A stretch of DNA of 64,000 nucleotides from Candidatus Palauibacter sp. (GCF_965237495.1 NZ_OZ250143.1:599786-663785); one strand, 5' to 3'; numbered from the stretch's first letter, positions 1 through 49,564 are shown. The notes: a model not told the origin generated them from the letters alone. Program-made: numbers and translations.

Positions 1-1995
1 GGGTCGCGAATTCCCTTCGGCGCCCGGAGGATTCCGCCGCTCCCATGATGGGATCTTCGAATTCTCTCTGGAAATCGCTTCGGCTTCCCAACTGACCTGG
101 CTGGGCAAAATCCACAATGCACCAGAGTTCGCGCAGACTGTTCTCGACGGGCGTACCGGTCAGCGCGAGGCGAAGATTGCTCTTCATGCCCTTAACGGCG
201 GCCGTGGTCTGCGCCCCCGGATTCTTGACTTTCTGCGCCTCATCGCAGGCGACGAAGGTCCAATCCACCTGAGCAAGCGTGACTTGGTCGCGCCGCAGCG
301 TCCCGTAGCTCGTGATTACGACTTGGTGCCTGGCGATCCGCATCGGATCACGTTCTCTTCCCGTGCCCAGGTGGTGGTGGATGTCCCGGATCGAGGGACA
401 GAATCTGCGAAGTTCCTCCTCCCAGTTCTGCACGAGGCCGACGGGGACGACCAGCAGGCAGGGGCCGAGTTCTCCCTGCTCCGCCAGGTGGCTCATAAGT
501 GCGATAACCTGAATCGTCTTTCCGAGCCCCATGTCGTCGGCGAGCAGCCCTCCGAAACCCTTGTCGTACAAGAATCGAAGCCATCGATATCCCGTCCGTT
601 GATACGGGTGCATTTCACCGTTGAAGCTGACCGGGTCGGGGTACTCCGGGAGTTCATCCAGGAACTCGAAATCCGGTTGGCGGCCTTCAAACTCAAGCTC
701 GTCCAGGTTGGAGATGACATCGAGAACGAGCGCCCGTGCCCTCGGGATCTCATAGCCGCCACGGCCATTGGGCTGAACTTCCTTCCAGACGTCGAGGAAA
801 TCCCTGGCATGCCGAGGTTCGATCTCCATCCACTCGCCACCGTGGAGGATCCAGGGATCTCCCGACTGCACAACCTGCCCGCAGACTCCCGCGTACTCCT
901 CGGGAGAGAACTGAGGGGGGCACATCGCCGAGTTCCGCCGAGCCGTGCGGCCGCGAAGAGGGTCTCGCGGGGCCGCGCGACTGCCGCGCCTCCCGCAGCC
1001 CAGTCGGGGAGCGATTCCGGAGTCACTTCGATATTGAAGTCGACGTCGAACCAGCCCCGGCTCTTCCCTTGGCCGAACTCAAATGAAGGCTGGGCATTGT
1101 AGCGTCTCGGGACGAGGCCACGTACCCGCAGGCTGAACTGCTCGGCGTCGACCGAATCGGGAAGATACGCTTCCGGATTCGCCAAGAACCGAGGGACATC
1201 TGTCCCTTCGATCTTCGGTCTTGCCTTGATCTCGTCCGCACCCGCCCGCTGCTCCGGGTTGAGCACGAGGCGCTCTCGGCGAGTCCCCTCCGCACGGAAG
1301 TAGGAGCTTCTTGTGGCTCCACGTCCGAGGTCGAAGCCGGAGGTGGCACCTTTCGATCCGATCGGGATCGGCAAGAGTTCGAGCTCTTCCGGGCCGACGC
1401 CGGTAACTTGGACGCCGACGCCTTCCGGAACCACGATGTCCTGGTCCCGCAGATAGGCGTCCAGATTTGCTCCCGCCCGATCCGCCGCCTCTCGAACGTG
1501 CCCGATGAAGAGCAGCTGGTCGTGAAACGAGGGTGCGTCCAGCGTGGAGAAATAGTCGAGGACCGAGTAGAGGTCTGCCACGGCCTCGGGAACGAGCCTC
1601 CACCCGCTGCCCATTCGGACAAAGGCGCCGATGCGATCTTCGGCCGAGAGAGGGCCCACGCCCGGAATTGTCGTCTCGGCGCGAACGCCGAAGTCGCCCG
1701 TCAAGGAAGCGTAGCCCGTGGCGCGAAGGTCTACGCCGACGCCAAGTGACTCCACGGGAAGACCGAACTCGTCGCGAGCGGGTCTCTCAAGTGCGTAGAT
1801 CTCGCGTGTCGGGAGCAGGTATCCCCCCTCAACTTCGTCGACCCGCTCCTCGAGCCATAGTGTCTCGAGGAGTCGGAGAGCGGGCGGGGCCGTTCGAGGA
1901 TCTCCCACTATCGGAAGGGCGGGGGCAGCTCCGTCCGGGGTCGCTTGAACAACACCAAAAAATGCGCCGTGGGGGTGGGGTGCCCAGTCGATCAT
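1..1995 (-). pseudogene. zorD: ZorD-like SNF2-family helicase (type I Zorya); 3' end runs off the window; one frame break near 915-925
   Basis: ATG at 1995 overlaps the zorC stop (ATGA). The first ~355 codons lie in the frame of track ORF 493..3102. From 925 downward another frame (absent from the track because it has no stop in the window) reads ...HPYQRTGYRWLRFLYDKGFGGLLADDMGLGKTIQVIAL...LVVPVGLVQNWEEE...FVACDEAQKVKNPGAQTT...LALTGTPVENSLRELW, which are SNF2 motifs I/Ia/II/III. The two frames meet at a G6 run (+ strand 915-920); one extra base there would join them. Confidence 0.8.
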
Positions 1996-2112
1996 CGGCC
2001 TCGCCGTGCAGTCCCTCTGGTCCACGTCTCCAGATAACGATCGGCCTGGCCCTGCCAGCCCATACCATGGATGAGCCAATTCGGGGTGCTCGACCACCCG
2101 AACCGCACCGTT
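1992..2112 (-). pseudogene. zorC: zorC 3'-terminal fragment, displaced by the IS21-like insertion
   Basis: Tail of track ORF 1992..2258 (...VRFGWSSTPNWLIHGMGWQGQADRYLETWTRGTARRGR*). After removing 2113-4244 plus one CCGTT copy it continues in frame from the 4245..5319 part. Its stop overlaps the zorD ATG. Confidence 0.75.
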
Positions 2113-2268
2113 TGTTGGCGGCCATGCAAAATTCGACAGTTGTGGCCGTCGAAAATCGTACACCTCGGGTGGGTGATCGAAGGCCGGGCTGGGCGGTGGA
2201 TCGGGGGGCTGGTGAGGTTCCCCGGGCCTTTCTCCACTCTGGCGTCTCCATTCAGCACAGGGGGCGCG

Positions 2269-3306
2269 ATGATCGGGAGAGAGAAGCGGGTGCTTCTGCG
2301 ACACTACCTCGAGCAGGGTGTGCCGAAGGCGGCGATCGCTCGGCACGTGGGAGTGAGCCGCGAGACGATCTATCGTTGGATCGCGACGGGGCAGTTGGAC
2401 CGGGATCTGGACGACGAGGCGGTGAGATACCGGCCGAGAGCTCCGGCGCCGTCGAAGCTCGATCCCTACAAGGGGATCATCGACACCCGGCTGGCGGACT
2501 ATCCGAGGCTGAGCGCCGTGCGGCTGTTCAACGAGGTGCGGGCGGCGGGCTATCCTGGCGGCTACGGCCAAGTGAAGCGCTACGTGCGCAGGGTCCGGCC
2601 ACGGGAGCCCGAGGAGCCGGTCCGGAGGTTCGAGACTCCACCGGGCCACCAAGCGCAAGTGGACTTCGCGGAGTTCCGGCTGCCGTGGGGCAAGCGTCAT
2701 GCGCTGATCGTGGTGCTGGGCTACTCGCGGCTGATGTGGCTCAGGTTCTATGAGCGCCAGACGATGCCGGTCGTGATCCGGGGGCTGGAGACATCGTTCG
2801 CTCATTTCAGCGGCGTGCCGTCGGAGCTTCTGTTCGACCAGATGAAGGCCGTCATCACCGGCGACAAGCGCAACGAGGGGGGCCGGCTGGTCGAGAACCC
2901 GGAGTTCCTGCGCTTCAGCGGCCACTGGGGGTTCCGGATCCGGGCGTGCCGCCCGTACCGGGCCCAGACGAAGGGCAAGGTCGAGCGGCCGATCCGCTAC
3001 ATCCGGAACAACTTCTTCTACGGCCGGGACTTCCTCTCCGATGACGACCTCAACGCACGGGCCCTCCTGTGGCTCGACGGCGTGGCCAACGTTCGGATCC
3101 ACGGCACGCTGAAGGAACGTGTGGCGGACCGGTTCGAGCGGGAGCGGCCGTACCTAAATTCCCTGGCACCGTGGCCTTACCGTCCCGTGACGCCGTTGCC
3201 CGAGCTCCAGACGACACAGACCCGGGTTCCTTCGGCACTCCAGGTCGTGGAGGTCGAACGACGTCCGCTGTCCGAGTACGCCGGGATCACGGGAGAGATC
3301 TCGTGA
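2269..3306 (+). CDS. istA: IS21-family transposase IstA
   Basis: MIGREKRVLLRHYLEQGVPKAAIARHVGVSRETIYRWI (HTH), then ...GHQAQVDFAEF...IVVLGYSRLMWLRFYE...LFDQMKAV...RPYRAQTKGKVERPIRYIR (DDE/integrase core). Lies in frame inside track ORF 2071..3306. Confidence 0.9.
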   Translation: MIGREKRVLLRHYLEQGVPKAAIARHVGVSRETIYRWIATGQLDRDLDDEAVRYRPRAPAPSKLDPYKGIIDTRLADYPRLSAVRLFNEVRAAGYPGGYGQVKRYVRRVRPREPEEPVRRFETPPGHQAQVDFAEFRLPWGKRHALIVVLGYSRLMWLRFYERQTMPVVIRGLETSFAHFSGVPSELLFDQMKAVITGDKRNEGGRLVENPEFLRFSGHWGFRIRACRPYRAQTKGKVERPIRYIRNNFFYGRDFLSDDDLNARALLWLDGVANVRIHGTLKERVADRFERERPYLNSLAPWPYRPVTPLPELQTTQTRVPSALQVVEVERRPLSEYAGITGEIS

Positions 3307-4121
3307 AGGCCCGGTCCCGGAGCACGCGCATCGCGGCCCAACTCGCCGATCTGAAGATGCCCGGCGCCCTGGAAGCCCTCGACGAGGTGCTTGCCGCGGT
3401 GGACGGCGGCGGAACCACCGCGGCAGAAGCCATCGAGCGGCTCCTGACCGCCCAGATCACGCTGCGCAACAGCCGGCGCCTCGCCACCGCCATGCGATCG
3501 AGCCGTCTTCCGGCGATCAAGACGCTCGCGGACTTCGACTTCAGCTTCCAGCCCTCGGTCAAGCGGGAGCAGATCGACTCGCTTCACGAGCTCGGCTTCC
3601 TGGAGCGCAAGGAGAACGTCGTCTTCCTCGGCCCGCCCGGCGTCGGCAAGACACATCTGGCGATCAGTCTGGCCATCGCCGCGGCCGAGAGCGGGCGCAG
3701 GGTCTACTACGGGACGCTCACGGATCTCATCGACTCCCTCGAAGAGGCCGAGGCCGCCGGCCGGCTCAACCACCGGCTCAAGACCCTCACCCACCCCGCG
3801 CTCCTGGTCGTGGACGAGATCGGCTACCTCCCGGTCACCCGCAGCGGTGCCATCCTGTTCTTCCAGCTCGTCAACCGGCGCTACGAGCACGCCTCGACGG
3901 TGCTGACCTCGAACAAGGGCTTCGAGCAGCGGGGAGAGATCCTGCACGACGAGGTCATGGCCGCCGCGCTGCTGGACCGGCTACTGCACCGCTGCCACAT
4001 GGTCAACATCCGGGGCAACAGCTACCGGATGCGACGCCATCTGGAACTCTCCAAGGCCATCCACCCGACCGCCTCCCGGGCGGTCTCGGCGGATCGCTCG
4101 GAACACGGAGGGACTCGGTGA
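3303..4121 (+). CDS. istB: IS21-family helper ATPase IstB
   Basis: GTG start overlaps the istA stop (GTGA). Walker A GPPGVGKTHLA and Walker B LLVVDEIGYLP, then ...LFFQLVNRRYEHASTVLTSNKGF. Confidence 0.9.
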   Translation: MKARSRSTRIAAQLADLKMPGALEALDEVLAAVDGGGTTAAEAIERLLTAQITLRNSRRLATAMRSSRLPAIKTLADFDFSFQPSVKREQIDSLHELGFLERKENVVFLGPPGVGKTHLAISLAIAAAESGRRVYYGTLTDLIDSLEEAEAAGRLNHRLKTLTHPALLVVDEIGYLPVTRSGAILFFQLVNRRYEHASTVLTSNKGFEQRGEILHDEVMAAALLDRLLHRCHMVNIRGNSYRMRRHLELSKAIHPTASRAVSADRSEHGGTR

Positions 4122-4244
4122 TGCGCGCCGACCAGATCCTCTCGGAACGTCCCGCTCCGGTCGCTCCGCTCCCTCCGCGGCGCGTTCCGAAAAGTGTCCC
4201 ATTTTCGACGGCCAGAAGTGTCATATTTTCGATGGCCATTGACA

Positions 4245-5319
4245 CCGTTTCTCGCCTCTTCAGGGCCGCCGGACTGCGTGGTTTCGTGGCTCGCAGCTGA
4301 CGTGCCTGTTGCCGCGCGTAGAAATAAGCGGCATTCCCCACCTCGAAGAACTCGACCACGGCGAACTCTTCGAATACAAGCCAGGCGTATTCTGTGCCCC
4401 CAGCCCTCCCGGTCTCCACATCGATCATCTCCGATACCCTACTCAACCAATAGCCATGGCGGTCGGTGTCTCCAGAGAACGCACGATCGAGTCTCATCCG
4501 CAGGAGCCAGCGCAGAAAGGCATCGCTGCGGTCTTGCGGCACGAGATTCCAGAACGCAGCACGCGGGCCACGAGGAGATCCGTAACTGGACTCGATCGCC
4601 CGCAGAACTGGGTCCTCCCACTCGCCAACGCGTAACGTGACGAGATAGTGCCTCGCAAACCCCTGTTGCCCGAGCGGGTTCAGTTCCGGAAGCCAGCGCA
4701 GGAGTCGTTCGGCACCCTCGGCCCGCAGCTGACTGGATGTCCCCTGGGTCATCACGGCCGTCCGCACCGCGCGCGCCAACGGTGTGTTCGGGCGGAGCGG
4801 GCTTTCCGCAAGATCAGCCAGGTCGGAGTAGGTGTGGCCTTGGGTGGCCAGCCATTTCCGAACAATCTCGCCCGGATTGCGGGCTCCCACCCAGCGACCG
4901 ACCTCTGCCTCCATACCCTCGCGGGCGATCAAGCTCCAACCGTACTGGTCACCGGCCAAAGCGCATAAGTCCGTCACTTCGGTAACGCCCGGATGCTCTT
5001 CCCAGGTCAGCCAAAGCTTAGGCAGCAGCCGCCGGTTCATGCGCCGTCGAACAATGCCGGCCGCCGCGGGGCGCACGTCATCCCACCGTCCCAGCGATCG
5101 CGCGATGCCCCGCACATCGCGACCCGATAACCCATCGGCCAGTCGGCGCAGAGCCACGCTGTCGGCAACGCACTCCCGGATACGGTCATGAAGCGCCTCG
5201 AGGCGGGTGTGTGACGCGTCTACCATCGCCCGCGCCGTCGAGGGATGCGCCTGCACCACTTCGCGCCGGACATTCGCCAGCTTCCGAGGGCTGTAGTCGA
5301 GAATCACCCGTCGACTCAT
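4245..5319 (-). pseudogene. zorC: ZorC-like protein, 5' portion (interrupted at 4244/4245 by IS21)
   Basis: Track ORF 4003..5319; its ATG overlaps the zorB stop (ATGA at 5316-5319). The assignment rests on position between the MotB-like and SNF2 genes and on size (396 aa after rejoining). I did not verify the EH-signature motif by eye. The track ORF's last ~80 codons are IS21 end sequence read through. Confidence 0.65.
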
Positions 5320-6107
5320 CGATCTTCCGACCTGAAGAAGAGCCGCTCGAGGATTTCCTGGATGACCTGCTCATCGTTCAAGCGAAACCGGATCTCAATG
5401 CGTCGGGAGCCCTCCTTATCCACGACGGTCGAGTCCGGAGCGAGAAACAGCAGGTCGGAGAACGAACGGCCGTTCGCCGTCACATACTGGCGCAACGCGT
5501 CCTCATATTCTGTGGATTGCTGCAGCAGGAACTGCATGACGCTGGAAGCACGATCCTGAGAAAGCCCGAGGTTGAACAAGTAGTTATCCTCAACCCGGTC
5601 GGGTGGGAAAGGTCCGTCCTGATCGGTGTGACCTTCTATCACGATCTCTTGCAGATGCTCTTCGAAGCGCGGGATTCCCAGCAGGACGGGCAGGTAGTCG
5701 GCCGCGAACTCGCCCAACCTCTCGCGCCCCAGTTGCCGGAGGTCGCTCGAGCCCCGATCGAAGAGCACCTCGCCTCCGAACCGGACCGATCCGGTCACGG
5801 TGTCGACCCGAAGAAAGCCCCGGCCCTCGAATCGAGCCCGAAGAGTGTCGGCGATCGCCCGGCGTGTCTCGACGAGATCCTGCACAGGGGCGGCCCGGTC
5901 CTGGTAGGTATGGAAGGCGGTCAACAACAGCAGGGCGAAGACCATCAGGAGTCCCGCGAGCAAATCGGCGTAGCTCAGCCAGTACTGATGCGGCGCGCTC
6001 TCGCCCGTCCAGTCGTGGGAGCGACCCTTAAACACGTCTGGACGTTTCCTCTCCGGTCCAGCGGCCGTCACGCTGCTCGAGGGCGTTCCGGAGGCGAACC
6101 AACTCAT
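5316..6107 (-). CDS. zorB: ZorB-like MotB/OmpA-family peptidoglycan-binding protein
   Basis: Single TM segment (YWLSYADLLAGLLMVFALLLLTAF), then an OmpA-like C-terminus (VRFGGEVLFDRGSSDL...IVIEGHTDQDG...NLGLSQDRASSVMQFL). The ATG at 6107 would overlap zorA by 80 nt. An in-frame GTG at 6035 overlaps the zorA stop by only 8 nt and is an alternative start. Confidence 0.8.
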   Translation of the reverse strand: MSWFASGTPSSSVTAAGPERKRPDVFKGRSHDWTGESAPHQYWLSYADLLAGLLMVFALLLLTAFHTYQDRAAPVQDLVETRRAIADTLRARFEGRGFLRVDTVTGSVRFGGEVLFDRGSSDLRQLGRERLGEFAADYLPVLLGIPRFEEHLQEIVIEGHTDQDGPFPPDRVEDNYLFNLGLSQDRASSVMQFLLQQSTEYEDALRQYVTANGRSFSDLLFLAPDSTVVDKEGSRRIEIRFRLNDEQVIQEILERLFFRSEDR

Positions 6108-6269
6108 CTTCCACGGCCTTGGCCTGACCCGAGGCGGCGTTCAGCGAGGCCGGGAGCGGCTCAAGCGCGAGGATGGAGTCGGTAAGAGCCGATAGCTTCT
6201 CCTCGGAAGCCCGCACCGGAGCGAGCGTCTCGGAAATCGCCTCCTCGATGCGCGTCACACCGGGGACTA
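6028..6269 (-). pseudogene. zorA: zorA fragment 3 of 3 (C-terminal end of the tail)
   Basis: ...VPGVTRIEEAISETLAPVRASEEKLSALTDSILALEPLPASLNAASGQAKAVEDELVRLRNALEQ... ending TAA at 6028. Joins fragment 2 in frame once 6270-7488 and one TA are removed. Confidence 0.8.
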
Positions 6270-7488
6270 GTGTCATGTCACACGTGATATGTCGTAAGGA
6301 GCGTGATAGACTTCTTGCCGGTCCACAATGGCGAGGAGGCTGGCATGAAACGGTATTTGGTGGAGTTGGAAGCGGGGGAGCGCGAGGCGTTGGCGGCGAT
6401 GACACGCAAGGGTTCACATCGTTCGCGGAAGGTGATCAACGCGCTGGTTCTGCTCAATTGCGACGAGGGCGAGTTCAACGAGCGGCGCACGACCGGCGGG
6501 GAGATCGCCGGGGTGTCGCGGATCAGCGCGCGCAGGGTGGACCGGGTCAAGAAGCGGTTTGTGGAGGACGGTCTGGAAGCGGCGCTTGGGGGCCGGCGGG
6601 GTCGTCGCGCGAAGTACCTTCGCAAGGCGGACGGCGAATTCGAGGCGCGGCTGGTCGCGCTCAGTTGCGGCGATCCGCCCGAGGGGCGCGCGCGGTGGTC
6701 GCTGCGCCTGTTGGCGGACCGCGCGGTGGAACTCGGCTATATCGACAGCGTCTCGCACGAGACGGTGCGGCGGGTGCTAAAAAAAACGCCATCAAACCGT
6801 GGCGGCGCGTCGGCTGGGTGATCCCGCCGCGGCGCAATGCCGACTTCGCAGCGGGGATGGAGCGGGTGCTCGACGTCTACCGGCGTCCGTACGATGCGAA
6901 CTTACCGGTGGTGTGCATGGACGAGACGCCGCGCCAGCTGATCGGCGAGACGCGCACGCCCGTCCCGCCGGCACCGGGACGGGCGGCCCGCGAAGACTAC
7001 GAGTACCGGCGCCTCGGCACCTGCAACGTGTTCATGGCCACCGAACCACTGGCCGGCCGGCGCCAGACCAAGGTGACCGAGCGCAGGACCAAAACCGACT
7101 GGGCCCGCTTCCTGCGCGACATCGCCGCGCAGTACCCCGGCGCCACCCGAATCACGCTGGTGATGGACAACCTCAACACGCACCGCCCCGGCGCGCTCCA
7201 CGAAACCTTCGAACCCGCCGAGGCCAAGGCGCTTTGGGATCGCTTCGAGTTCGTCCATACCCCCAAGCACGGCAGTTGGCTGAATGTCGCCGAGGTCGAA
7301 CTCAACGTCATGATCCGCCAGTGCCTCAATCGCCGCATCGACTCCATCGACACCCTACGCGCCGAAGTCGCCGCCTGGCAGGCGGCCAGAGACCGAATCC
7401 AAGCCAAGGTCAACTGGCAATTCACCACGGACGACGCACGTGTCAAGCTCAAGCGCCTCTATCCGACGTTTGCTGTGTGACATGACAC
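6270..7488 (+). mobile_element. IS630/Tc1-mariner-family insertion sequence
   Basis: Perfect 14-bp terminal inverted repeats: GTGTCATGTCACAC at 6270-6283 and its complement at 7475-7488. Flanked by TA (6268-6269) and TA (7489-7490), the TA duplication characteristic of IS630. Confidence 0.9.
6345..7480 (+). CDS. IS630-family transposase, two frames joined at an A8 run (-1 shift at 6779-6786)
   Basis: The upstream frame (MKRYLVELEAGEREALAAMTRKG...HETVRRVLKK) reaches the A8 run. The -1 frame continues KKNAIKPWRRVGWVIPP...VCMDETP...LVMDNLNTHR...TPKHGSWLNVAEVEL (DDE). The joined sequence VLKKNAIKPW matches the usual IS630 junction. Confidence 0.85.
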
Positions 7489-7771
7489 TAGGTCCTCGGT
7501 GGCTTCTCGCAATTCTGCCAACGTGCCGGACAGATGGTTCACCACCGTGGCCATCTCGGTATCGAAACGCGCGAAGACCTCCTGCAGCTTCTCTTGAGTG
7601 ACGCTCGTGAACTCGGTGAGACTCCCTTCGAGGGCTGTGGCGAGTGCATCCAGATTGCCCTTCAGATCGTTCCAGAATCCGATGAGCCGATCTACCTGGC
7701 CTCCCGTCTCATCCAGCTGGGTGGCGAGCGCCGTGCGAAGCTCCACATTGGCTTCCGTGAACGCGTCGACC
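7489..7771 (-). pseudogene. zorA: zorA fragment 2 of 3 (tail segment between the IS256-like and IS630-like insertions)
   Basis: ...DAFTEANVELRTALATQLDETGGQVDRLIGFWNDLKGNLDALATALEGSLTEFTSVTQEKLQEVFARFDTEMATVVNHLSGTLAELREATEDL. Overlaps track ORF 7459..7746. Confidence 0.8.
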
Positions 7772-9137
7772 GAGGTCGGGTCAATAGGTGTGTAAACGTC
7801 ATCAGGCGGCGATCCTCTCCCGACCCTCGGGGACGGGCTTTCCGTCCTCGAACCTCTTCCCTTCGTACACCTCTCCCAAGCAAGTGCGGCGCGTTGAGCT
7901 TCCCGGACCTCTTCTCGGCCACCAGCAGCAGCCGCCAGATCAGCGCCGTGGCGTTGTCGACCCGCTTGAACCGCTTCGCGGCCGTCGTGCGCAGCCGGAC
8001 CGAGGCGAACGGGCTCTCCACGACGTTGGTCGTCCGCAGGTGCCGCCAGTGCTTCTCCGGATAGTCGTGGAAGGCCGTCATGCGGTCCCAGTCGTCCTCG
8101 AGCACGGCCACCGCCTTGGCCTCGGCGTCTCCGTAGCGGTCCCGGAAGGCGTCTCTCGCCTCCTTCGCCGCCGCCCGCGAGGGCGCTACGCCGCCGCGCG
8201 CAGCATCTCCCTCGCCGCGGCCTGCTCTCTCTTGGGCAGCCGGTCCAGCACGTTGGTCGTCTTGTGGTTCCAGCACCGCTGCTCGGCCGTCTCCGGCCAC
8301 ACCTCCCGCGCCGCGCCCCAGATGCCCAGGTTCCCGTCGGCGACGAGCAGCTTCGGCGTCCCGAGCCCCCGCGCCTTGAGGTCCCTGAGCACCGCCGCCC
8401 ACGACTCGACCGACTCCCGGTAGCCCGGCGTGACCGCCAGCACCTCCTTCGTCCCGTCGCTCATGGCCCCGATCACCACCAACAGCGCCGCCTTGTCCCG
8501 CTCCAGGCCCGCCTTCACGTAGATCCCGTCCGCCCACGCGTACACGAGCTCACGGTCTCCCAGCGGCCGCCGGCTCCACGCCTCGTGCTCCGCCGTCCAC
8601 CTCGCCCTGAGCCGCCTCACCGAGGACTTCGACAACGGCGCCCCGTCGCCCAACAGCCCCCTGAGCGCCAGCTCGAAATCGCCCTCGGCCAGCCCGTGCG
8701 GGTACAGCTCCGGGATCAGCTCGCCCACCTCCCGCGTCCGGCGCGCGAACAACGGCAGCACCCGGCTCTCGAACCGTTCCTCCAGGCCCCTGACCCGAGG
8801 CCGCCTGACCTCGATCGTCCCCGAACTCGTCGCCAGACGCCGCGGCTTGCCGTACCCGTTCCGGTAGCCCGGAGGCGCGTCCACCGCCGCCCGCCGTTCC
8901 GACTTCACCCGGCCCGGAAGCTCCGTGATCTCCTCCTCCAGTGCCGCCTGGATCAGACCGCGCATCTCCTCCCGCACCCACACCTCCAGCGTCTCCCACG
9001 CTGGCCCGCCGAACCTCTCCCGCGTATCGTTGCCCATGAGGCGACGTCCTTTCTCCGGGTCTCCCCCCGGATCGCTGGTAAACGGTCAGCTGAAAGGTAC
9101 GTCGCCTCGCTTTTTACACACCTTTTGTTCCTACCTC
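7772..9137 (-). mobile_element. IS256-family insertion sequence with a decayed transposase
   Basis: Imperfect ~25-bp terminal inverted repeats: GAGGTCGGGTCAATAGGTGTGTAAA (7772-7796) versus the reverse complement of 9113-9137, GAGGTAGGAACAAAAGGTGTGTAAA. 8-bp direct repeat CGTCGACC at 7764-7771 and 9138-9145. Confidence 0.85.
7802..9037 (-). pseudogene. IS256-family transposase with at least two frame breaks
   Basis: Track ORF 8186..9037 (MGNDTRERF...GYRNGYGKPRRLATSSGTIEVRRPRVR...LVVIGAMSDGTKEVL...CWNHKTTNVL) stops at 8186. The protein continues in another frame (...AFHDYPEKHWRHLRTTNVVESPFASVRLRTTAAKRF...). It needs a further shift near 7865 to reach the family-typical end ...VYEGKRFEDGKPVPEGRERIAA* at 7802. 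Confidence 0.8.
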
Positions 9138-10320
9138 CGTCGACCTCCTTGCCAAGCCGAGAGGATGTCGCGGCCGTATGATCGGCGATCTCGCGAAGGT
9201 GGCCGGTTGCCTCCGAGATGTGTGTGTGGCTTTCCTGCAAGCCGTCCAGGCTCTCAAGGAAACGAGCGGCCGCCTCGCCGCCGCTCTCGACGAGGGTCGC
9301 AGTTACCTCCGACACGGTCACGACCCGTTCGAAGACTGCACGAACGTCGACGTTGACACGCTCCTGCCACTCAGCCGCTCCCTGGACTGCGCTTGCGAGC
9401 CGCTGGATCTGATCATCCGCAGCGCCCAGGAACTGTTCTCGAAACGCGACGACTATATCCTCAAGCGCTTCCATTTGGCGCTGATCCACCTGCGTAGTGA
9501 CGGCCTGTAGGGTCTCATCGATCGACGTCAGCGCAGGCGAGAAGCTCTTCTCCATCACGTCCTGCATCGCGCTTGCGACGTCGGTCCCCAGGTTCTGCAG
9601 GATCCCCTTCTGCTCTTCAAGCAGGACCCTCTGCTCCTCCGCGTTTCGCAGGGAGCCGGCCAAGACTGCCTCGGGAGTCCTCACCGGAAATCGTACCCGG
9701 ACTTCATCGAAGAACGCCCGAGCACGTCCCTGGAACCCGTGGTGCGTGGACCGATGCGCAATTCGCCAGATCAGGGACAGGGCGATCCCGGCCAACGATG
9801 TGACGAAGGCCGCGGACATCCCGGAGAGAAGCGTCTGCACGCTCTCGAACAGTGCGTCCTGATCCGGAATCCCGATGTCCTTGAGTCCGACGTATAATCC
9901 CCAGAAGGTCCCCAGGATCCCAAGGCCGGCGAAGATCGCGGACAGCGCGAGCGAGAGCTGGCGGTTGTATCCCTTGAGGACGGCACTCTCGGTGAAGACT
10001 GCCTCAGGGTCCGTGACGCCGAACGGCAAACCATGAACCGTGACTGCGTCCGCCTCGTATCGCTCGGCGAAGTCGGTCCAGAGGTGAGACAGGACGCTCT
10101 CTGGAGCGAACGGGGACAGTCGGCTCGGAGTCTCGGCACCGTCAAGTCGGACGCTCTCGGCGGCTTCGGCAAACTCGTTACGCCGTCGCCGGACCCCGTT
10201 AAGCCCCGCAGAACCTCGGAACCCAAACAACCCGTACACCGCGAAAGCGATCATGGCGTAGAGAAAGAGAATACTGCTATTGGGAACGATTGCAGGGGGG
10301 AACGGATTTATGATGTCCAC
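9138..10320 (-). pseudogene. zorA: zorA fragment 1 of 3 (MotA/ExbB-like membrane domain and start of the tail)
   Basis: Track ORF 8953..10320. TM-rich MotA/TolQ/ExbB-like segments (LSLALSAIFAGLGILGTFWGLYVGL; LLSGMSAAFVTSLAGIALSLIWRI), then a long helical region. After ...SSRLGKEVD the reading runs into the IS256-like inverted repeat. Confidence 0.8.
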
Positions 10321-10532
10321 GAACTCTATGTGACTCCCCTTGCAAGCGTCGAACGTTTACCCCGGATCCTGCGATCGTGGGCGCGGGGCTCGTCCGGGAG
10401 GGCGGCCGTAGCCGGGCCGTGGAGGCCTTGACGATAGTGAGATCATAGTTTCGGACTATGGAAAAGCACCGCCCGGGGCCCTACGTTCAGAGGGACTGAA
10501 CAAGAGTTCACCCCGGAACGGAGGACACCCGA

Positions 10533-11885
10533 ATGGTGCGTGGAAACGACTATACCGGACCGCGCCCGCACGTGCAAGGATCGGCGGCCGCGCTGAGGGT
10601 CCGCGGGGGCGGCGGGCGGATCACCGACGCGGGCGGCCTCGTCGTGGTTCGGAAGCTGTGGGACGCGCTGGGGCTGGGCGGCTGGATCGACCGGCGGAGC
10701 GGGAACGTCCCCGGCCGCTACCGGCCATCGCTCATGGTCGAGTCGTGGGTGGTGCTGCTCCTGTACGGCGGCGGGGCGATGGACGACCTGCCGCTTCTGG
10801 AGCGGCGGGGCGTGCGCCGCATCTTCGGCTGGGCGCGGGTGCCGCACCCGGCCACGTTCGGGCGCTGGTTGCGGGGTTCGGCGGCCGTGCTGTCGCCGCT
10901 TCTGGACGAGCTGTTGTGGCGGATGGTGCGGCGGCGCTGGGAGCTGGCCGGCGGGGCGCCCCGGTCGGCGACGATCGTCATGGACTCGACCGTCGTGGTG
11001 CGCTACGGGCTGAAGCAGGCCGGGGCGGAGCGGGGCTACAACCCGAAGAAGCGGGGCCGCCCCTCGCACCACCCCCTTCTGGCCTACGTCCTGGAGACGG
11101 GCGACTGCCTCGGGGTGCGCTGGCGGCCGGGGGGCGCGCACACGGCCCGGGGGGCGGAGGCGTGGCTGGCCGAGCTGGTGGCCCGCCTGAGGGGGGCGGG
11201 GGTGCGGCGGATCACCGTGCGGCTGGACAAGGGGTTCTTCTCCAAGTCCATCGCGCGGCGCATGGAGGAGCTCGGCGTGTCCTATCTGCTCAAGGTGCCG
11301 CGGCACGCCTGGCTCGACGGCTTCCGGGGCGCCTGGGAGACCGCCGCCCGGGACGAGGCCGGGGACCGGGAACTGAGGACGGCCTCCGGCGAGCTGTGGG
11401 GGACGCGGCTTCTCTCGGTCGAGAGGCGGAGACGGGTCGGGCCGGACGAGGGAGAACTCGATCTCGCGGCGTGGGAGACCACGATGAGCGCCGACGTTCT
11501 GACCAACATCGGGAGCATCGGCCCCGTCGAGGCGTGGCGCGCCTACAACGCGGGCGCGGTCGTCGAGCAGCGGATCGAGGAGCTGGGCCAGCTCTCGGCC
11601 GGCCGCACCGCGGTGGACGACCTCGGCGGCAACGCCCTGCTGTGGAGCCTCGCCGTGCTCGCCTACCAACTCCTCCACATCCTGCGCGCGAACTTCCTCG
11701 GCGGCCGCTGGCGCGCCGTGCAGCCGCGCGGCATCCGGCTGCGCCTGCTGCGCGCCCCCGCCAGGATCACCTCCCACGCCCGCCGAACCTCGCTCGGGTT
11801 CGCGCGCGCCGAACCGGCCCTCGGCCTCCTGCGACCGGCGCTCCGGGCCATCGAGCGGGGTCTCCCGCCGCCCGCGCCCGCCTAA
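10533..11885 (+). CDS. IS1380-family DDE transposase
   Basis: 450-aa intact ORF with ...IVMDSTVVVRYG...GYNPKKRGRPSHHPLLAYV...VRLDKGFFSKS...NALLWSLAVLAYQLLHIL. I could not fix the element ends or target duplication by eye. Confidence 0.75.
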   Translation: MVRGNDYTGPRPHVQGSAAALRVRGGGGRITDAGGLVVVRKLWDALGLGGWIDRRSGNVPGRYRPSLMVESWVVLLLYGGGAMDDLPLLERRGVRRIFGWARVPHPATFGRWLRGSAAVLSPLLDELLWRMVRRRWELAGGAPRSATIVMDSTVVVRYGLKQAGAERGYNPKKRGRPSHHPLLAYVLETGDCLGVRWRPGGAHTARGAEAWLAELVARLRGAGVRRITVRLDKGFFSKSIARRMEELGVSYLLKVPRHAWLDGFRGAWETAARDEAGDRELRTASGELWGTRLLSVERRRRVGPDEGELDLAAWETTMSADVLTNIGSIGPVEAWRAYNAGAVVEQRIEELGQLSAGRTAVDDLGGNALLWSLAVLAYQLLHILRANFLGGRWRAVQPRGIRLRLLRAPARITSHARRTSLGFARAEPALGLLRPALRAIERGLPPPAPA

Positions 11886-12454
11886 ATCTGACCGGCCCCA
11901 ACTCCGGCTTTCCGAAGGCGCCGCGCGGCGGCGCCCACTCCCCGTGTCTCCGCGAGCCGTTCGGGACCCCTCCCGAGCCCCGCCGGCCCTCCGCCGAGGC
12001 CCGGTCCGGCCCCGAAAACGCCACCGCCCGCGCCAAGTCGCCACAACCGCCGGTCATAATCGCCCTCAGGCCGCCCGACTATGCGCCAACGCAGGATCCG
12101 GGTTTACCCGTCGCCCACGCCTGCCTTGTTAGGTTTCGTATCCCTCGGTACGCCGTCTTTCACAGACGGGCTCGGGCCTCGCTACGGGAATCTTCGCGAC
12201 CGCCTCCGGTGGGTGTCCGGTTACGTTTTGACGGTTGCCGGCGGAGGCTCCTCGACTCGGAGGTCCAATCCGCCGGGAATCGAATAGGCCAAGCGAAGCC
12301 ATTGAGAATGACCAACGAAACCAACAACGTCAAGAGCCTGCCCTTATTGGTCAGCTGCTCAAGCAGCCCCTCGGGTAGCAGCTAGGCCAGCTGGAAGCGC
12401 ATGCTCATACGGATCCCATGACAGCGCTAACCTCACTCCCCTGACAGCGCATCC

Positions 12455-13366
12455 ATGCTTCAACGGCTTGACGAGCGGAACCGCGATCTCCTCGTCAATG
12501 TGAACGGGAAGCTCGTCCATCGTGACGAGGCCGGCGTCAGCCCCTTCGACTCCGTGGTGCAGGGGGGAGATGCCGTCTGGGAAGGCCTGCGCCTGTACGA
12601 TGGCCACATTTTCAAGCTGGAGGAACACCTCGCCCGCCTCCGGTCCTCTGCCCTGGCCCTCGCCTTCGCCGATATCCCCTCGGACGAGGAGATCGTCGGG
12701 GAGATCCGGCGCACGCTCGTCGCGAACCGCATGCGCGACGGCGTGCACATTCGACTGACGCTGACGCGGGGGGTGAAGTTCACCAGCGGCATGGATCCCC
12801 GTCTCAATCAGGCGGGTCCCACGCTGATCGTGCTCGCCGAACACAAGGCGCCGGTCTACGAGCGATCCGGTCTGCGGCTGATCACGAGTTCGCTGCGCCG
12901 CTTCGGTCCGGACACGCTGGACCCGAAGATCCATCACGCCAACCTCCTGCAGTCGATCCTGGCCAAGATCGAGGCGAACGCGGCCGGCGCCGATGATGCG
13001 CTGATGCTCGACCAGCGTGGATTCATCGCCGAGACGAACGCCACCAACCTCTTCTTCGTGCGCGGGGGTGTCGTCATGACGAGCCGGACCGTCGCCTGTC
13101 CCGAGGGGATCACCCGCGCCACGGTACTCGACCTCTGCGCGCGACACGGGATCCCGAGCCGGGTGGACGATCTCTCCCTCACGGAGGCCTACCGCGCGGA
13201 CGAGGCGTTCTGCACCGGCACGATGGGAGAGCTGGCGAGCGTGACCGAGATCGACGGGCGGGTCATCGGAGACGGATCGCCGGGCCCGGCGACGAAAAGA
13301 CTCAGCGAACTCTACCGCGACCTGACGGCGCACGAGGGGGCCACCCTGATCGCGGGAGAGCGGTAG
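12455..13366 (+). CDS. Class IV (branched-chain / D-amino-acid) aminotransferase
   Basis: ...SPFDSVVQGGDAVWEGLRLYDGHIFKLEEHLARLRSSA...HIRLTLTRG...ETNATNLFFVRGGVVMT...GITRATVLDL...EAFCTGTMGEL, the typical fold-type IV PLP enzyme pattern. Confidence 0.85.
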   Translation: MLQRLDERNRDLLVNVNGKLVHRDEAGVSPFDSVVQGGDAVWEGLRLYDGHIFKLEEHLARLRSSALALAFADIPSDEEIVGEIRRTLVANRMRDGVHIRLTLTRGVKFTSGMDPRLNQAGPTLIVLAEHKAPVYERSGLRLITSSLRRFGPDTLDPKIHHANLLQSILAKIEANAAGADDALMLDQRGFIAETNATNLFFVRGGVVMTSRTVACPEGITRATVLDLCARHGIPSRVDDLSLTEAYRADEAFCTGTMGELASVTEIDGRVIGDGSPGPATKRLSELYRDLTAHEGATLIAGER

Positions 13367-13793: not shown

Positions 13794-14070
13794 GGAACCG
13801 CTTGATCTCAGCCACACCCGCCGGGCGTTGAAAGGATTGGCGACCGTCGAACCCCCAACGCGACGAGCCGATCTTGACAAGAAGATCGAGGCCCTACGCA
13901 TCGAACCACGACCACACGATTCTCGATAGATAGCCGGTGTGCTCTGGTTCGGAGCGGCCGTATACCGAATCCGATCAGGGTCTTACCGTGCGCTTTACAG
14001 TATCTCGACGGAACGCGAGATCACCGTCTTCTACGTGGGACATCGGAGTAAGGTATACCGCAACCTTTGA
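13765..14070 (+). pseudogene. RelE/ParE-family toxin remnant with an in-frame TAG
   Basis: This frame reads ...LDLSHTRRALKGLATVEPPTRRADLDKKIEALRIEPRPHDSR * IAGVLWFGAAVYRIRSGSYRALYSISTEREITVFYVGHRSKVYRNL*. The YRIR.G.YR..Y.I....I.V..VGHR..VY tail is the RelE/ParE signature. The TAG is at 13927-13929. The start is uncertain. Confidence 0.6.
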
Positions 14071-14124
14071 TGTCAACTCCGATGGCCGCTCCGATCCGCC
14101 GCGCTGGCCCCGAGCGTGTCGAGC

Positions 14125-14857
14125 AGCCCGTCGGGTACGGTGATCCTGCCCATCCCCGCCTCCGCCGACATCCCCGCGGACGAGGAGATCATCGGGGAGA
14201 TCCGCCGCACGCTCATCGCGAACCGCATGCGCGACGGCGTACACATTCGCCTGACGCTGACGCGGGGCGTGAAGTTCACGAGCGGCATGGATCCCCGTCT
14301 GAATCAGGCGGGTTCCCCCCTGATCGTTCTCGCCAAGTACAAGGCGCCCGTCTACGATCGGTCGGGTCTGCGGCTGATCACGAGTTCGCTGCGCCGCTTC
14401 GGACCGGACACGCTGGACCCGAAGATCCATCACGCCAATCTCCTCCAGTCAACCCTGGCCAAGATCGAGGCGAACGCAGCCGGTGCCGATGATGCGCTGA
14501 TGCTCGACCGCAACGGCTTCATCGCCGAGACGAACGCCACCAACCTCTTCTTCGTGCGCGGGGGCGTCGTGATGACGAGCCGGACGGTCGCCTGTCCCGA
14601 AGGGGATCACCCGCGCCACGGTGCTCGATCTGTGCGGGCAGCACGCGATTCCGAGCCGGGTGGACGATCTCTCCCTCACGGAGGCCCACCGCGCGGACGA
14701 GGCGTTCTGCACCGGCACGATGGGGGAACTGGTGAGCGTGACCGAAATCGACGGGCGGGTCATCGGAGACGGATCGCCGGGCCCGCTGACGAAGAGGCTC
14801 AGCGAACTCTACTCGGAGCTGACGGCGCGCGAAGGGGTTGTCCTGATCAGCGGCTGA
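14125..14857 (+). pseudogene. 5'-truncated, frameshifted paralogue of the class IV aminotransferase
   Basis: Aligns to roughly codon 60 onward of 12455..13366, at about nine of ten nucleotides by eye. The N-terminal region is missing. CCCGAAGGGGATCACC (about 14597-14612) has one base more than CCCGAGGGGATCACC in the intact copy, which splits the reading between track ORFs 14116..14958 and 14621..14857. Confidence 0.8.
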
Positions 14858-14872
14858 GGGTTCGACCCGGCA

Positions 14873-15046
14873 TCAGCCGTCGGGGTCGCGGAACCTCCGG
14901 GCCGAGCCGGCCAGATCGTCAAAATCCTCCAGGTATCGCTCCAGCGCCCGCTGAATGATCTCCTCACAGCTGCGTCCCAGCGCCAGCGCGGAGGCCTCGA
15001 TCGCGTCGAATGCCACGTCGGGCAGGCGTACCTTTATCTGAACCAT
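14873..15046 (-). CDS. Small ribbon-helix-helix (CopG/Arc-like) protein, orphan antitoxin-like
   Basis: 57-codon ORF below the track's size cut-off: MVQIKVRLPDVAFDAIEASALALGRSCEEIIQRALERYLEDFDDLAGSARRFRDPDG*. This is a beta-strand / helix / helix N-terminus typical of RHH antitoxins. No toxin gene follows it. Confidence 0.5.
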   Translation of the reverse strand: MVQIKVRLPDVAFDAIEASALALGRSCEEIIQRALERYLEDFDDLAGSARRFRDPDG

Positions 15047-16359: not shown

Positions 16360-17451
16360 TCAGGTCAAGGTGTCGGGCCGCGGAAGACCTCTCGTCGATG
16401 CCAGGGGATCAGTGCGATCGTGGAGGAGGTTCATGGTCAGCCGCGCCATCAAGTCCTTGGCGGCGGGGGCGCTCTCGGCGATGAGCAGGGTGAGCGCCGT
16501 GACCGCCTGGGGGTTCAGCCCGTGCTCGACGTTCTCCTGCTTGAGGTAGAGCAGGAACAGCAGCGATCCGATGCGTTTGTTGCCATCGGTGAAGGGGTGG
16601 TCCTTGACGATGAAGTAGAGCAGATGTGCCGCCTTCTCCTCCCGCGAGCGGTAGAGCGACTCTCCGAACATGGTCTGCTCGATGTTGCCGAGGATGCCGG
16701 CGAGGGCGTCGCCCCGGAGGTTGCCGAACAGCGGAGACGCTTCCTGGCGTTCCATCAACTCCCGCTTGAAGCTGACGATCGCTCCAGTCGCCGTGTCGTA
16801 GTCGAGCACGCCCGTTGACGGACTCCGGCCCGGCGGCATCTGCAGCCGATCCTCGTCGTATTCCAGGAGCAGTCGCCATGTGTCGGCGTAGCGCCCGATG
16901 ACGTCGAGCACCGCCCGACCCGTGTCGGTCACCAGCGCCTGGTTCTTCAGCGTCCGGCTGAGCAGATCGAGGGTTTCGCGAGCCTCGCTCAGGCCGCGCT
17001 CCGCCAGCCGCTGCTCGTTCATGGTGTAGCCGCGGATCAGGTGTTCGCGCAGGGTGTGAGTGGCCCATTGCCGAAAGCGGACACCTCGCTTGGAGTTGAC
17101 GCGATAACCGACGGAGATGATGGCATCGAGGTTGTAGTGCCTCAGGTTGCGCCGCACTCGACGTTGACCCTCGGTCCGAACTACTAAGAAATCCTTAGCA
17201 GTTCCCTCCGCCTCCAACTCGCCGCTTGAGAACACGTTGCGCAGATGCATCAGCACGTTCTCCGGCGTCGTATCGAACACCTCCGCCATCTGCCGCTGGG
17301 TCAGCCAGACGGTTTCGCGGTCGAGGCGGACATCCACTCGCACATCGCCGTCGGACGTCTCGTAAACGAGGACCTCGCCCCCAGGGAGCTCTGCGGACAC
17401 CGTATCACCCATCGCATTGCTCTCCGAGTGCTCGATGGTGGCTCCACCCAT
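16360..17451 (-). CDS. RhuM-family N-terminal domain fused to a Fic/Doc domain
   Basis: N-terminus ...VWLTQRQMAEVFDTTPENVLMHLRNVF...NLRHYNLDAIISVGYRVNSKRGVRFRQWAT (RhuM-like). C-terminus ...AAHLLYFIVKDHPFTDGNKRIGSLLFLLYL (Fic/Doc motif HxFxDGNKR). Confidence 0.8.
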   Translation of the reverse strand: MGGATIEHSESNAMGDTVSAELPGGEVLVYETSDGDVRVDVRLDRETVWLTQRQMAEVFDTTPENVLMHLRNVFSSGELEAEGTAKDFLVVRTEGQRRVRRNLRHYNLDAIISVGYRVNSKRGVRFRQWATHTLREHLIRGYTMNEQRLAERGLSEARETLDLLSRTLKNQALVTDTGRAVLDVIGRYADTWRLLLEYDEDRLQMPPGRSPSTGVLDYDTATGAIVSFKRELMERQEASPLFGNLRGDALAGILGNIEQTMFGESLYRSREEKAAHLLYFIVKDHPFTDGNKRIGSLLFLLYLKQENVEHGLNPQAVTALTLLIAESAPAAKDLMARLTMNLLHDRTDPLASTRGLPRPDTLT

Positions 17452-17475
17452 CCGGCTCTCTCTTCCTATCCCGTG

Positions 17476-25563: not shown

Positions 25564-25620
25564 CAGACGGGCTGACCAACCCCGACCCCGCCTCGCGCGG
25601 TGGTGACGGAAGGAGCCGGC

Positions 25621-26697
<1,077 letters not shown>

Positions 26698-26704
26698 ACT
26701 AGCC

Positions 26705-27631
26705 GTGCGCGCGCGGATCACCTCGAGGACGGTTCCGGGGACGCAGTTCCTCGATCCGACGGTATTGACGCGGATCGGGAACCTCGAACTCGTGGCGCGC
26801 TACGTGGTCGAGGGCTTCATCGCCGGGGCGCACGGATCGCCCTTCCTGGGGCGGTCGCTCGACTTCGCGGCGCACCGGCAGTACCTGCCCGGCGACGATA
26901 TCCGCAAGATCGACTGGAAGGTCTACGGGCGCACCGACCGCCACTACATCAAGGAATACGAGGCCGAGACCAACGCGAACGTCTTCTTCGCGATCGACGC
27001 CTCCCGGTCCATGGACTACGGCTCGCAGGGGATCACGAAGCTCGACTACGCGCGCTACCTGGCGGCCTGTCTGGTCTACCTCTCCGCGAGCCAGCGGGAT
27101 CGGGTGGGCACCGCCGTGTTCGACGACAAGCTGCTCGAGTACATCCCCCCCTCCGTCCGACACCGGCGTCTGATCCTCGCCGCGCTCGACCGCATCAGCG
27201 CGGAGACGGCGGGCGACCTGACGCGGCCGCTCATCCAGGTGGCCGAGAGCCTCACCCGGAAGGGGATCGTCGTCCTCCTCTCCGATCTCTACGCGGAGCC
27301 GAAGACCGTGCTCGACTCGGTGGGGGCGCTCCGGAGCAAGGGGCAGGACGTGATCGTGTTCCAGATCCTGGATCCGGCCGAGGTCGACTTCCCGTTCGAG
27401 GCCGCGAGGTCGTTCGAGGACCTGGAGACGGGCGAGCGGATCCCGGTGATGCCGGATGACATGCGGACGGAGTACCTCTCGCTGGTCGAGGGGCACGTGG
27501 GCGAGCTATCGAAGCTGATGATCGAGCGGGGGATCGACCACGAACTCGCGGTGACGTCGGTGCCGCTCGACGCGGTGCTCTTCCGCTACCTCTCGCACCG
27601 GGCGCGGCGCCTCAAGGGGAAGGAACGATGA
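26705..27631 (+). CDS. DUF58-family (VWA-like) protein
   Basis: ...GAHGSPFLGRSLDFAAHRQYLPGDDIRKIDWKVYGRTDRHYIKEYE...FAIDASRSM. This is the canonical DUF58 partner of MoxR. Confidence 0.85.
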   Translation: MRARITSRTVPGTQFLDPTVLTRIGNLELVARYVVEGFIAGAHGSPFLGRSLDFAAHRQYLPGDDIRKIDWKVYGRTDRHYIKEYEAETNANVFFAIDASRSMDYGSQGITKLDYARYLAACLVYLSASQRDRVGTAVFDDKLLEYIPPSVRHRRLILAALDRISAETAGDLTRPLIQVAESLTRKGIVVLLSDLYAEPKTVLDSVGALRSKGQDVIVFQILDPAEVDFPFEAARSFEDLETGERIPVMPDDMRTEYLSLVEGHVGELSKLMIERGIDHELAVTSVPLDAVLFRYLSHRARRLKGKER

Positions 27632-29715: not shown

Positions 29716-29771
29716 CGGAGCCTGGACATCGTCCCCGCGCGAGGGGGCCGAGGTCGTCAAGGAGGATGACG

Positions 29772-35830: not shown

Positions 35831-35842
35831 CGGTTCGGATCT

Positions 35843-49105: not shown

Positions 49106-49564
49106 CTACCGGACAACAACCTTGCGGGAGACGTGGATGACGTTGGCGGGATTCTCGCGTTGCTCGTACGGATAGCGGATCCCGTCCAACCCGACCACGG
49201 TGACCCGCGCGATGCCTGGCGCAGCGAAGTGCAGATCGACTGTACGTATCGGGGCGGCGAGAAAATCCGGGCAGCTACCAGGACCGAAATAGCGCTTGTA
49301 GGGGGTGATTGTCGCGTGGAGACCATCAACGTCGATCCGTGTTCGGCCCTCTTCCAGAAGACAGGTGTGATACGTTTGGACGGTCACTGGGAACAACTCG
49401 TTCACGTTCACGGTATCGGGCGTCGTCACCGCACTTGTGTCGTACGGCCATCCTGACCCCGCCATAACGAGAGCCGCCATCACTTCTTCATCGCCCGGCC
49501 TGAACAGCTCCCCGCAGCCGGCCGTGAGACCGGCTGCGAGGGCTATTGCAACGATTCGGTTCAT
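49106..49564 (-). CDS. Hypothetical lipoprotein, translationally coupled to the S1 protease
   Basis: MNRIVAIALAAGLTAGC contains a lipobox (LTAGC). The ATG overlaps the protease stop (ATGA at 49561-49564). Confidence 0.6.
   Translation of the reverse strand: MNRIVAIALAAGLTAGCGELFRPGDEEVMAALVMAGSGWPYDTSAVTTPDTVNVNELFPVTVQTYHTCLLEEGRTRIDVDGLHATITPYKRYFGPGSCPDFLAAPIRTVDLHFAAPGIARVTVVGLDGIRYPYEQRENPANVIHVSRKVVVR

Follow-up and report, generated by a model that had tools for sequence, protein, structure and literature searches.

Organisation of the zor operon

The stretch of DNA analysed here (the window, 64,000 nucleotides, NZ_OZ250143.1:599786-663785 of assembly GCF_965237495.1) comes from Candidatus Palauibacter sp. 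(Gemmatimonadota). Positions 1-10320 of the window hold, on the minus strand, a chromosomal type I Zorya defence operon, zorABCD, that is broken by insertion sequences (IS), frameshifts and a deletion. All coordinates are window positions. Because the window is GC-rich (62-77%) and long spurious open reading frames (ORFs) are common in it, the analysis was started from the IS junctions and not from ORF calls.

The four co-oriented genes lie in the order zorA-zorB-zorC-zorD, which agrees with the first-pass annotation of this DNA, and the same order was found in at least eight related loci. zorA and zorB overlap by 8 nt, and the ATGA overlaps that had been described at zorB/zorC and zorC/zorD are both present. 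When each of the elements lying inside zorA and zorC was excised in silico with one copy of its target duplication, zorA (565 codons plus stop) and zorC (396 codons plus stop) were restored at the proposed lengths (Table 1). The junction peptides were reproduced, and both rejoined frames were open throughout, with no stops found. The picture of seven gene segments created by three IS held for the pieces of zorA, zorB and zorC. It did not hold for zorD, which is not one intact segment, and it overlooked a fourth IS.

As now encoded, ZorA would be a protein of 455 aa with about 394 native residues, and ZorC would be a protein of 438 aa with about 357 native residues and without His372. The N-terminal reading frame of ZorD meets a stop after 500 aa.

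Table 1. Features of the zor locus and other defence genes in the window. Arrows give the direction of reading.
Feature	Position	Strand	Description
zorA	10320->6028	-	rejoined 1698 nt, 565 aa; GTG start
zorA 5' segment	9138..10320	-	MotA/ExbB-like membrane domain and start of tail
zorA middle segment	7489..7771	-	codons ~393-486, tail
zorA 3' segment	6028..6269	-	codons ~487-565, tip of tail
zorB	6035->5316	-	intact, 239 aa; GTG start
zorC	5319->1992	-	rejoined 1191 nt, 396 aa; ATGA overlap at each end
zorC 5' segment	4245..5319	-	codons 1-357, including Glu323
zorC 3' segment	1992..2112	-	codons ~358-396, including His372; stop overlaps zorD start (ATGA)
zorD	from 1995 (1..1995)	-	partial, runs off window start
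zorD frameshift 1	982	-	extra base, A on coding strand, outside homopolymer; compared with L016 position 11013
zorD frameshift 2	915..920 (G-run on + strand)	-	C6 on coding strand, C5 in intact alleles
IS1380-family element	10361..12102	+	36 nt upstream of zorA start codon; TTTAC duplication at 10356-10360 and 12103-12107
IS256-family element	7772..9137	-	inside zorA; 8-bp duplication CGTCGACC at 7764-7771 and 9138-9145
IS630-family element	6270..7488	+	inside zorA; TA duplication in CTAG target
IS21-family element	2113..4244	+	inside zorC; CCGTT duplication at 2108-2112 and 4245-4249
istA	2269-3306	+	within IS21-family element
istB	~3306-4121	+	within IS21-family element
RhuM-Fic fusion protein	16360-17475	-	PADLOC candidate PDC-S23, 4.8e-120
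HEC-01 candidate defence system	35139-36913	-	HEC-01A 356 aa, AAA_21, intact

Identity of the Zor proteins

The reference for type I Zorya was the system of E. coli NCTC9026 (EcZorI; Hu et al., Nature 2024/25, PMC11946911), for which structures of ZorAB (PDB 8QYD), ZorC (8R68) and ZorD (8QY7 and 8QYC) are available. When the rejoined proteins were run against the PADLOC type I Zorya profiles, the check that had been proposed for them, all four were matched, ZorC1 only weakly. The rejoined ZorA matched ZorA1 (1.9e-21) and Pfam MotA_ExbB (5.4e-7), and a ZorA profile searched against PDB sequences returned ZorA 8QYK (9.7e-13) and also 8QYD. Its residues from about 220 to 565 resemble a helical tail, with weak matches to coiled-coil families.

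ZorB matched ZorB1 (1.2e-54), Pfam OmpA (1.4e-6) and, among PDB sequences, 8VVI (1.2e-16) and 8QYD_F (3.6e-8). It consists of a MotB-like transmembrane helix, in which Asp24 of the motif YWLSYADLL aligns with the Asp of YWISLSDMM, followed by an OmpA-like peptidoglycan-binding domain, and it is called as a 239-aa protein in the related contigs L015 and L016, which are described below. ZorD matched the PADLOC profile ZorD1 (PDLC00633) in separate frames, over profile positions 55-336 (2.4e-41) and 345-636 (2.7e-97), as well as Pfam SNF2-rel_dom. The clade to which it belongs matched E. coli ZorD 8QY7 at 8.8e-95, and the 933-aa ZorD of L016 contains both SNF2-rel_dom and Helicase_C.

The rejoined ZorC matched PADLOC ZorC1 at 5.8e-5 and no Pfam family at E<=5, and its profile gave chance matches only against PDB sequences. 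An exhaustive profile search of representative sequences found 332 relatives, and a third, alignment-based homologue search did not extend the family. Full-length homologues are 391-396 aa long, share 51-92% identity and align without gaps across the IS21 junction. When 67 diverse members were aligned, only W257, R287, W291, E323, H372 and W376 were invariant. The Pfam family EH_Signature (PF15611) was matched by 41 of 67 relatives (best 2.2e-16), and no other family was matched. An AlphaFold model of P0001, an intact ZorC homologue 92% identical to that of the window, had a predicted local distance difference test score (pLDDT) of 87. Its sole significant fold match in the PDB was E. coli ZorC 8R68 (E 4.3e-4 over 370 columns), with a low global TM-score of 0.37. 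The first-pass annotation had named a ZorC-position protein without an EH-signature domain as the outcome that would speak against Zorya. With E323 and H372 invariant in the family, the EH_Signature matches of its members and the fold match to 8R68, the ZorC position is occupied by an EH-signature protein. The IS21 element is inserted at codon 357/358, between the signature residues Glu323 and His372.

Insertion sequences

ISfinder families are defined by duplication length, inverted repeats and transposase domains. IS256 elements have a Mutator-type DDE transposase, inverted ends of about 20-30 bp and an 8-9-bp target duplication; IS630 elements have a transposase with helix-turn-helix and DDE_3 domains and duplicate TA, typically in CTAG. 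IS21 elements carry istA (rve integrase core) and istB (AAA+ helper) between TG...CA ends, with a 4-8-bp duplication, and IS1380 elements carry a DDE_Tnp_1_4 transposase of about 450 aa between short inverted ends, with a 4-5-bp duplication. The four elements at the zor locus fit these families in transposase domains, terminal inverted repeats and duplication length (8 bp, TA in CTAG, 5 bp and 5 bp, respectively), and all four duplications are perfect. For the IS256-, IS630- and IS21-like elements the coordinates, families and duplications were exactly those already annotated.

The inverted ends of the IS256-like element are imperfect (about 26 bp), and its transposase (Transposase_mut, 3.3e-39 and 1.2e-8) is split over two frames. 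Unlike intact members of the family, this copy therefore has a frameshifted transposase, of 283 aa plus a remainder compared with 411 aa in intact copies on the same 4.29-Mb contig. These intact copies could act in trans; 411-aa relatives carry the source name "IS256 family transposase". The IS630-like element has perfect 14-bp inverted ends (GTGTCATGTCACAC) and a transposase with DDE_3 (2.1e-29) and HTH_32 domains, encoded in two frames that join at an A8 slippery run. The IS21-like element encodes IstA (rve, 7.7e-12) and IstB (IstB_IS21, 2.1e-77) and has TG...CA termini with 44-nt inverted arms, which are typical of the multi-repeat termini of IS21.

The fourth element, of the IS1380 family, lies just outside the coordinates covered by the first-pass annotation and was missed by it. 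It is an additional 1742 bp relative to the contigs L001 and L016, has a GC content of 74% and is bounded by perfect 13-bp inverted ends (CCCGGATCCTGCG). Its 450-aa transposase (10533-11885) matches DDE_Tnp_1_4 (PF13701) at 2.8e-32 over the full profile, and relatives of identical length carry the source name "IS1380 family transposase". This insertion may affect the transcription of zorA. Neither the intact nor the interrupted upstream region of zorA yielded a sigma-70 promoter or a terminator when scanned.

Transposases of all four families, exact or at least 90% identical, occur in many Candidatus Palauibacter assemblies, and the 4.29-Mb contig to which the window belongs has several distinct variants of IS256 and of IS1380. 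Within the window itself, none of the four elements was found a second time.

Lesions in zorD

In the window zorD occupies three frames, holding the N-terminal domain (1995->983), a linker (981->921) and the N-lobe of the SNF2 domain (914->1, with the DEAQ box at ~244). All three parts, of which the linker has 22 codons, show homology to intact ZorD, each in a frame of its own; the ZorD homologues of this clade are single ORFs of 925-940 aa. Alignment to L016, with the frames also compared with contig L002, showed that the two breaks are +1 single-base insertions. A single event was considered and rejected, since the 22 codons in the middle show their homology in a third frame, which requires two events. 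Both frameshifts lie in the variable stretch that links the N-terminal to the C-terminal domain, and the internal-ATG gene call P0277 starts right after them.

The 3' end of zorD was read from contig L015 (ERZ26167216), which is 100% identical to window 1-13306 and reaches 3 kb further left (L015 1-3045), and from the gene products P0275 and P0277 of the source genome. A 479-bp deletion with defined breakpoints, which starts about 331 nt to the left of the window, has taken away the stop codon and the ~160 codons before it, in which helicase motif VI lies; the N-terminal domain and the SNF2 N-lobe remain.

Intact alleles in related contigs

An uninterrupted locus, which the first-pass annotation had recommended seeking in related genomes, was found. 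Three related metagenome contigs (L001, L013 and L016) carry the operon free of IS, and the decisive one was L016 (ENA ERZ25071132 ctg819094_12x_l), a 515-kb contig at 12x coverage from a near-identical Candidatus Palauibacter strain that co-occurs with that of the window. L016 encodes ZorA, ZorB, ZorC and ZorD of 565, 239, 396 and 933 aa, the first three exactly as long as the proteins of the rejoined genes. Its nucleotide identity to the window is 99.65-99.85% over zorA-C and 98.65% over zorD. Compared with L016, the excised window has zero gaps in zorA-C and the upstream spacer, and none at any junction. The empty sites of L016 (GGTCGACG, CCTAGT, AACGG and GTAAA) are the reverse complements of the duplications, with the IS630 site in CTAG. 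L016 thus differs from the window in having no IS at the four sites, no zorD frameshift and a complete zorD, next to the same upstream aminotransferase gene.

L001 is 94% identical to the window and colinear with it over all insertion sites, and at each site its matched blocks overlap by about the duplication length. The ZorA of L001 and the rejoined ZorA share 95% identity, with both junction peptides identical. Like L001 a more distant intact copy, the short-read scaffold L013 encodes proteins of 563, 238, 396 and 925 aa.

Over zorA-C the window differs from L016 by 12 substitutions, six non-synonymous and six synonymous, giving six amino-acid differences. With L001 and L002 used for polarisation, the ratio of non-synonymous to synonymous rates (dN/dS) was 0.22 on the branch of the window and equalled that of the L001 branch, with no relaxation. 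We read the unrelaxed ratio as a sign that the lesions are recent and do not take it as evidence of function. From the 3' end of zorC onwards (L016 9900-12325), divergence rises from ~0.2% in zorA-C to ~1.2% in zorD. Since the zorD changes are mostly synonymous (18 synonymous, 9 non-synonymous), the jump suggests a recombination boundary rather than decay.

Some other loci contained broken genes and no IS. L002 has a frameshift near zorD codon 6 (11190-11210) and a split aminotransferase gene (5075-5991), and L011, a 2x contig, has many split zor genes; at such coverage the breaks in L002 and L011 may be sequencing errors. The fragmented zor genes of L011 and L012 were considered as further IS hits and rejected, as no IS lies inside them and, for L011 at 2x, sequencing errors are more likely. 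L002 also has a 259-aa gene (13987-14766) that shows translational coupling with the end of zorD. This gene was dropped as a candidate fifth component, having no Pfam or PADLOC match and not being conserved in the other Zorya loci of the clade. A ZorB scan of genome contigs found nothing, and a scan of genome contigs with the ZorC profile found only loci of Longimicrobiales, Gemmatimonadota and Bryobacterales at ~31% identity. Scans of metagenome contigs with a 29-mer conserved in zorA and with the ZorA profile also found nothing.

Genomic surroundings

The genus Candidatus Palauibacter belongs to the order Palauibacterales of the Gemmatimonadota, a marine group associated with sponges or corals (PMC10469786). 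The GC content of the Zorya operon is 63.0%, compared with 68-70% in the surrounding chromosomal genes and 66-74% in the IS, and this low value is consistent with horizontal acquisition of the operon. The upstream neighbour of zorA is a class IV aminotransferase gene, in synteny common to L001, L002 and L016. A gene of this class flanks Zorya in L001, L002, L012, L013 and L016, on varying sides. The window has two copies (12455-13366 and 14116-14955), one full and one truncated at the 5' end, which form direct repeats that are ~90% identical and about 1.5 kb apart.

Two further candidate defence loci are present, a RhuM-Fic fusion gene and HEC-01 (Table 1). HEC-01B is encoded in two frames with a break near 35630, where there is no homopolymer, which makes this a second defence locus with a frameshift. 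Together, Zorya, RhuM-Fic and HEC-01 suggest a stretch resembling a defence island.

A probable integrated mobile element occupies window ~49500-60610. It contains a tyrosine-integrase-like protein (58958-60610, minus strand), a relaxase-like ORF (55940-57415), an IS5/IS1182-like transposase (51504-52997), a pentapeptide-repeat protein and a PAS-HisKA_3 kinase. No tRNA gene was found in the whole 64-kb window. Elsewhere, 25576-33296 holds an operon of the "Bat aerotolerance" type (MoxR (AAA_3)-DUF58-BatA/VWA-DUF4175), whose last gene has an imperfect Gln/Gly-rich repeat at 32739-32861. At 62841-64000 there are tandem paralogous genes of ~207 aa with no Pfam match, as repeats 81-85% identical and 607-613 bp apart.

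Probable inactivation and its history

In E. coli, ZorA5B2 is a proton-driven motor and the ZorA tail signals to ZorC and ZorD; ZorC binds DNA via its EH motif, which is required for both binding and defence, and ZorC and ZorD without ZorAB give no protection (PMC11946911). By homology, ZorA5B2 of the intact Palauibacter system would be a proton-driven motor anchored to peptidoglycan, and its ZorA would have a long tail in the cytoplasm. When a phage attacks, this tail would recruit or activate ZorC, an EH-signature protein that binds DNA, and ZorD, an SNF2 nuclease/helicase under autoinhibition, and the invading DNA would be degraded by them. In this genome the IS1380 element separates zorA from its upstream region, the IS256 and IS630 elements interrupt the tail of ZorA near codons 393 and 486, and the IS21 element parts the Glu from the His of the ZorC signature. 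zorD has its two linker frameshifts and, just outside the window, the truncation of its 3' end. Any single lesion in zorA, zorC or zorD would be expected to abolish defence, because every tested truncation of the E. coli ZorA tail, tip deletions included, abolishes it, and so do mutations of the EH motif or the ZorD DEAQ box (PMC11946911).

We consider it very probable that this type I Zorya operon of Candidatus Palauibacter is now a dead pseudo-operon, which suffered one inactivating hit and then accumulated others neutrally. The lineage is rich in IS, and a Zorya locus that was already dead would have been a safe landing site for them. The lesions are very recent, because the duplications are perfect, zorA-C differ from L016 by few substitutions, and dN/dS equals that of the L001 branch. 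The first-pass annotation had described the stepwise inactivation of a defence system. Inactivation is supported, and the damage was under-counted, the IS1380 element, both zorD frameshifts and the 3' deletion having been left out.

Several points weigh against a simple account of one hit followed by neutral decay. The word "stepwise" can only be inferred, because the sequence does not reveal the order of events, and the loss of defence at this locus is itself predicted from the E. coli experiments. Of the five IS that the 64-kb window contains, four are in or beside the ~5.6-kb Zorya locus, for which uniform insertion gives P = 5e-4; P rises to 0.02-0.06 only if 20-30% of the remaining window tolerates insertion. 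With such clustering, pure neutrality of the hits is not proven. The contig L015 is labelled with a coverage of only 3.73x, and because this contig is identical to the window, the C6 in place of C5 in zorD could be a homopolymer consensus error. L015 may also derive from the same reads as the window and hence offer no independent confirmation.

The clustering would fit an inactivation that was positively selected, Zorya being costly or autoimmune, or blocking useful mobile DNA, with later hits detoxifying a partial system. At least seven independent lesions have accumulated in ~6.4 kb, yet the divergence from the intact allele is only 0.2-1.2%. The C-terminal domain of E. coli ZorD alone is an active nuclease, while the full-length protein is autoinhibited (PMC11946911). 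The frameshifts here fall exactly in the linker between domains, with the start of P0277 right behind them, and the nuclease domain might for example have been uncoupled by them and then neutralised by the 3' deletion. However, one hit suffices and additional hits need no selection, the genus is IS-rich, the frameshift in HEC-01B points to a general decay of accessory genes, and the order of events is not established. We regard such an adaptive, multi-step shut-down as unlikely. Slightly less likely still, in our estimate, is a non-neutral pile-up in which the parts remaining after the first knock-out were harmful and each further IS hit, frameshift or deletion was selected as detoxification. 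Candidates for the harmful parts are a tail-less ZorAB proton channel and a ZorD nuclease domain that is no longer restrained by the autoinhibiting N-terminal domain.

It is highly improbable that the lesions are artefacts of assembly, with multi-copy IS misplaced or the frameshifts introduced as consensus errors into an operon that is really intact. The low coverage label of L015, the low-coverage relatives with fragmented zor genes and no IS (L011 and L002) and the location of one zorD frameshift in a homopolymer would fit such an origin. But the duplications are perfect and typical of their families, and excision restores an independently assembled intact allele, base for base, four times, which random mis-joins would not do. 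The other frameshift (982) lies outside a homopolymer and the breakpoints of the 479-bp deletion are defined. The long housekeeping ORFs of the window, about 20 kb in total, are free of frameshifts, which speaks against errors being frequent overall. With perfect duplications and intact ends, the IS could in principle excise precisely and so act as an on/off control of defence. For a reversible switch, however, four elements, two frameshifts and one deletion would all need to revert; the transposase of the IS256 copy is defective, and the 3' end of zorD is physically gone. This deletion effectively refutes a switch, to which we give almost no credence. The simplest reading is a single inactivating hit and, after it, neutral accumulation of the others.

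Comparison with known systems

The locus, newly described here, belongs to a known defence system, is heavily decayed and was inactivated by a known kind of event. It is a case of ordinary defence-gene loss and reveals no new mechanism. It provides a natural before/after pair of type I Zorya, one copy intact and the other with seven lesions, ~0.2% apart at the locus, and shows how fast an uncultured marine lineage that is rich in IS can shed an immune system. It also calls for caution in automated censuses of defence systems, by which such a locus would be missed or mis-scored. If detoxification had in fact been selected, the locus, compared with the intact allele that is 99.7% identical to it, would document a "dismantling pathway" by which selection takes apart a nuclease defence system coupled to a motor.

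Defence systems fragmented by mobile elements or pseudogenisation are a recognised class (PADLOC web-server paper, PMC9252829). The zor locus resembles this class in being a multi-gene system that is broken by mobile elements and frameshifts and is detectable only after reconstruction. It differs from the usual cases in its heavy load, with four IS of four families, two frameshifts and one deletion in an operon of ~6.4 kb, and in the availability of an essentially identical intact allele for comparison.

With EcZorI the operon shares the gene order zorA-zorB-zorC-zorD with overlapping start and stop codons. Common to both are a ZorA made of a MotA/ExbB-like membrane domain and a long helical tail, a ZorB with the MotB-type transmembrane aspartate (Asp24 here) and an OmpA-like domain, and a ZorD with an N-terminal domain and an SNF2 ATPase containing a DEAQ box. 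The ZorC network R-x3-W...E...H...W is also shared, formed here by R287, W291, E323, H372 and W376 and in E. coli by Arg335, Trp339, Glu400, His443 and Trp458 (PMC11946911). Sequence identity is low (18% for ZorC in the fold alignment), and the Palauibacter system is interrupted and presumably non-functional. ZorA has 565 aa compared with 729, and hence a shorter tail, and ZorD ~933 compared with 1080. ZorC, at 396 aa, ends about 20 residues past the signature Trp and, judging from these lengths, appears to lack the C-terminal globular domain of EcZorC. The short ZorA tail, the 396-aa ZorC apparently without this domain and the ZorD of ~930 aa mark a compact Gemmatimonadota clade of type I Zorya that is potentially useful for comparative mechanistic work.

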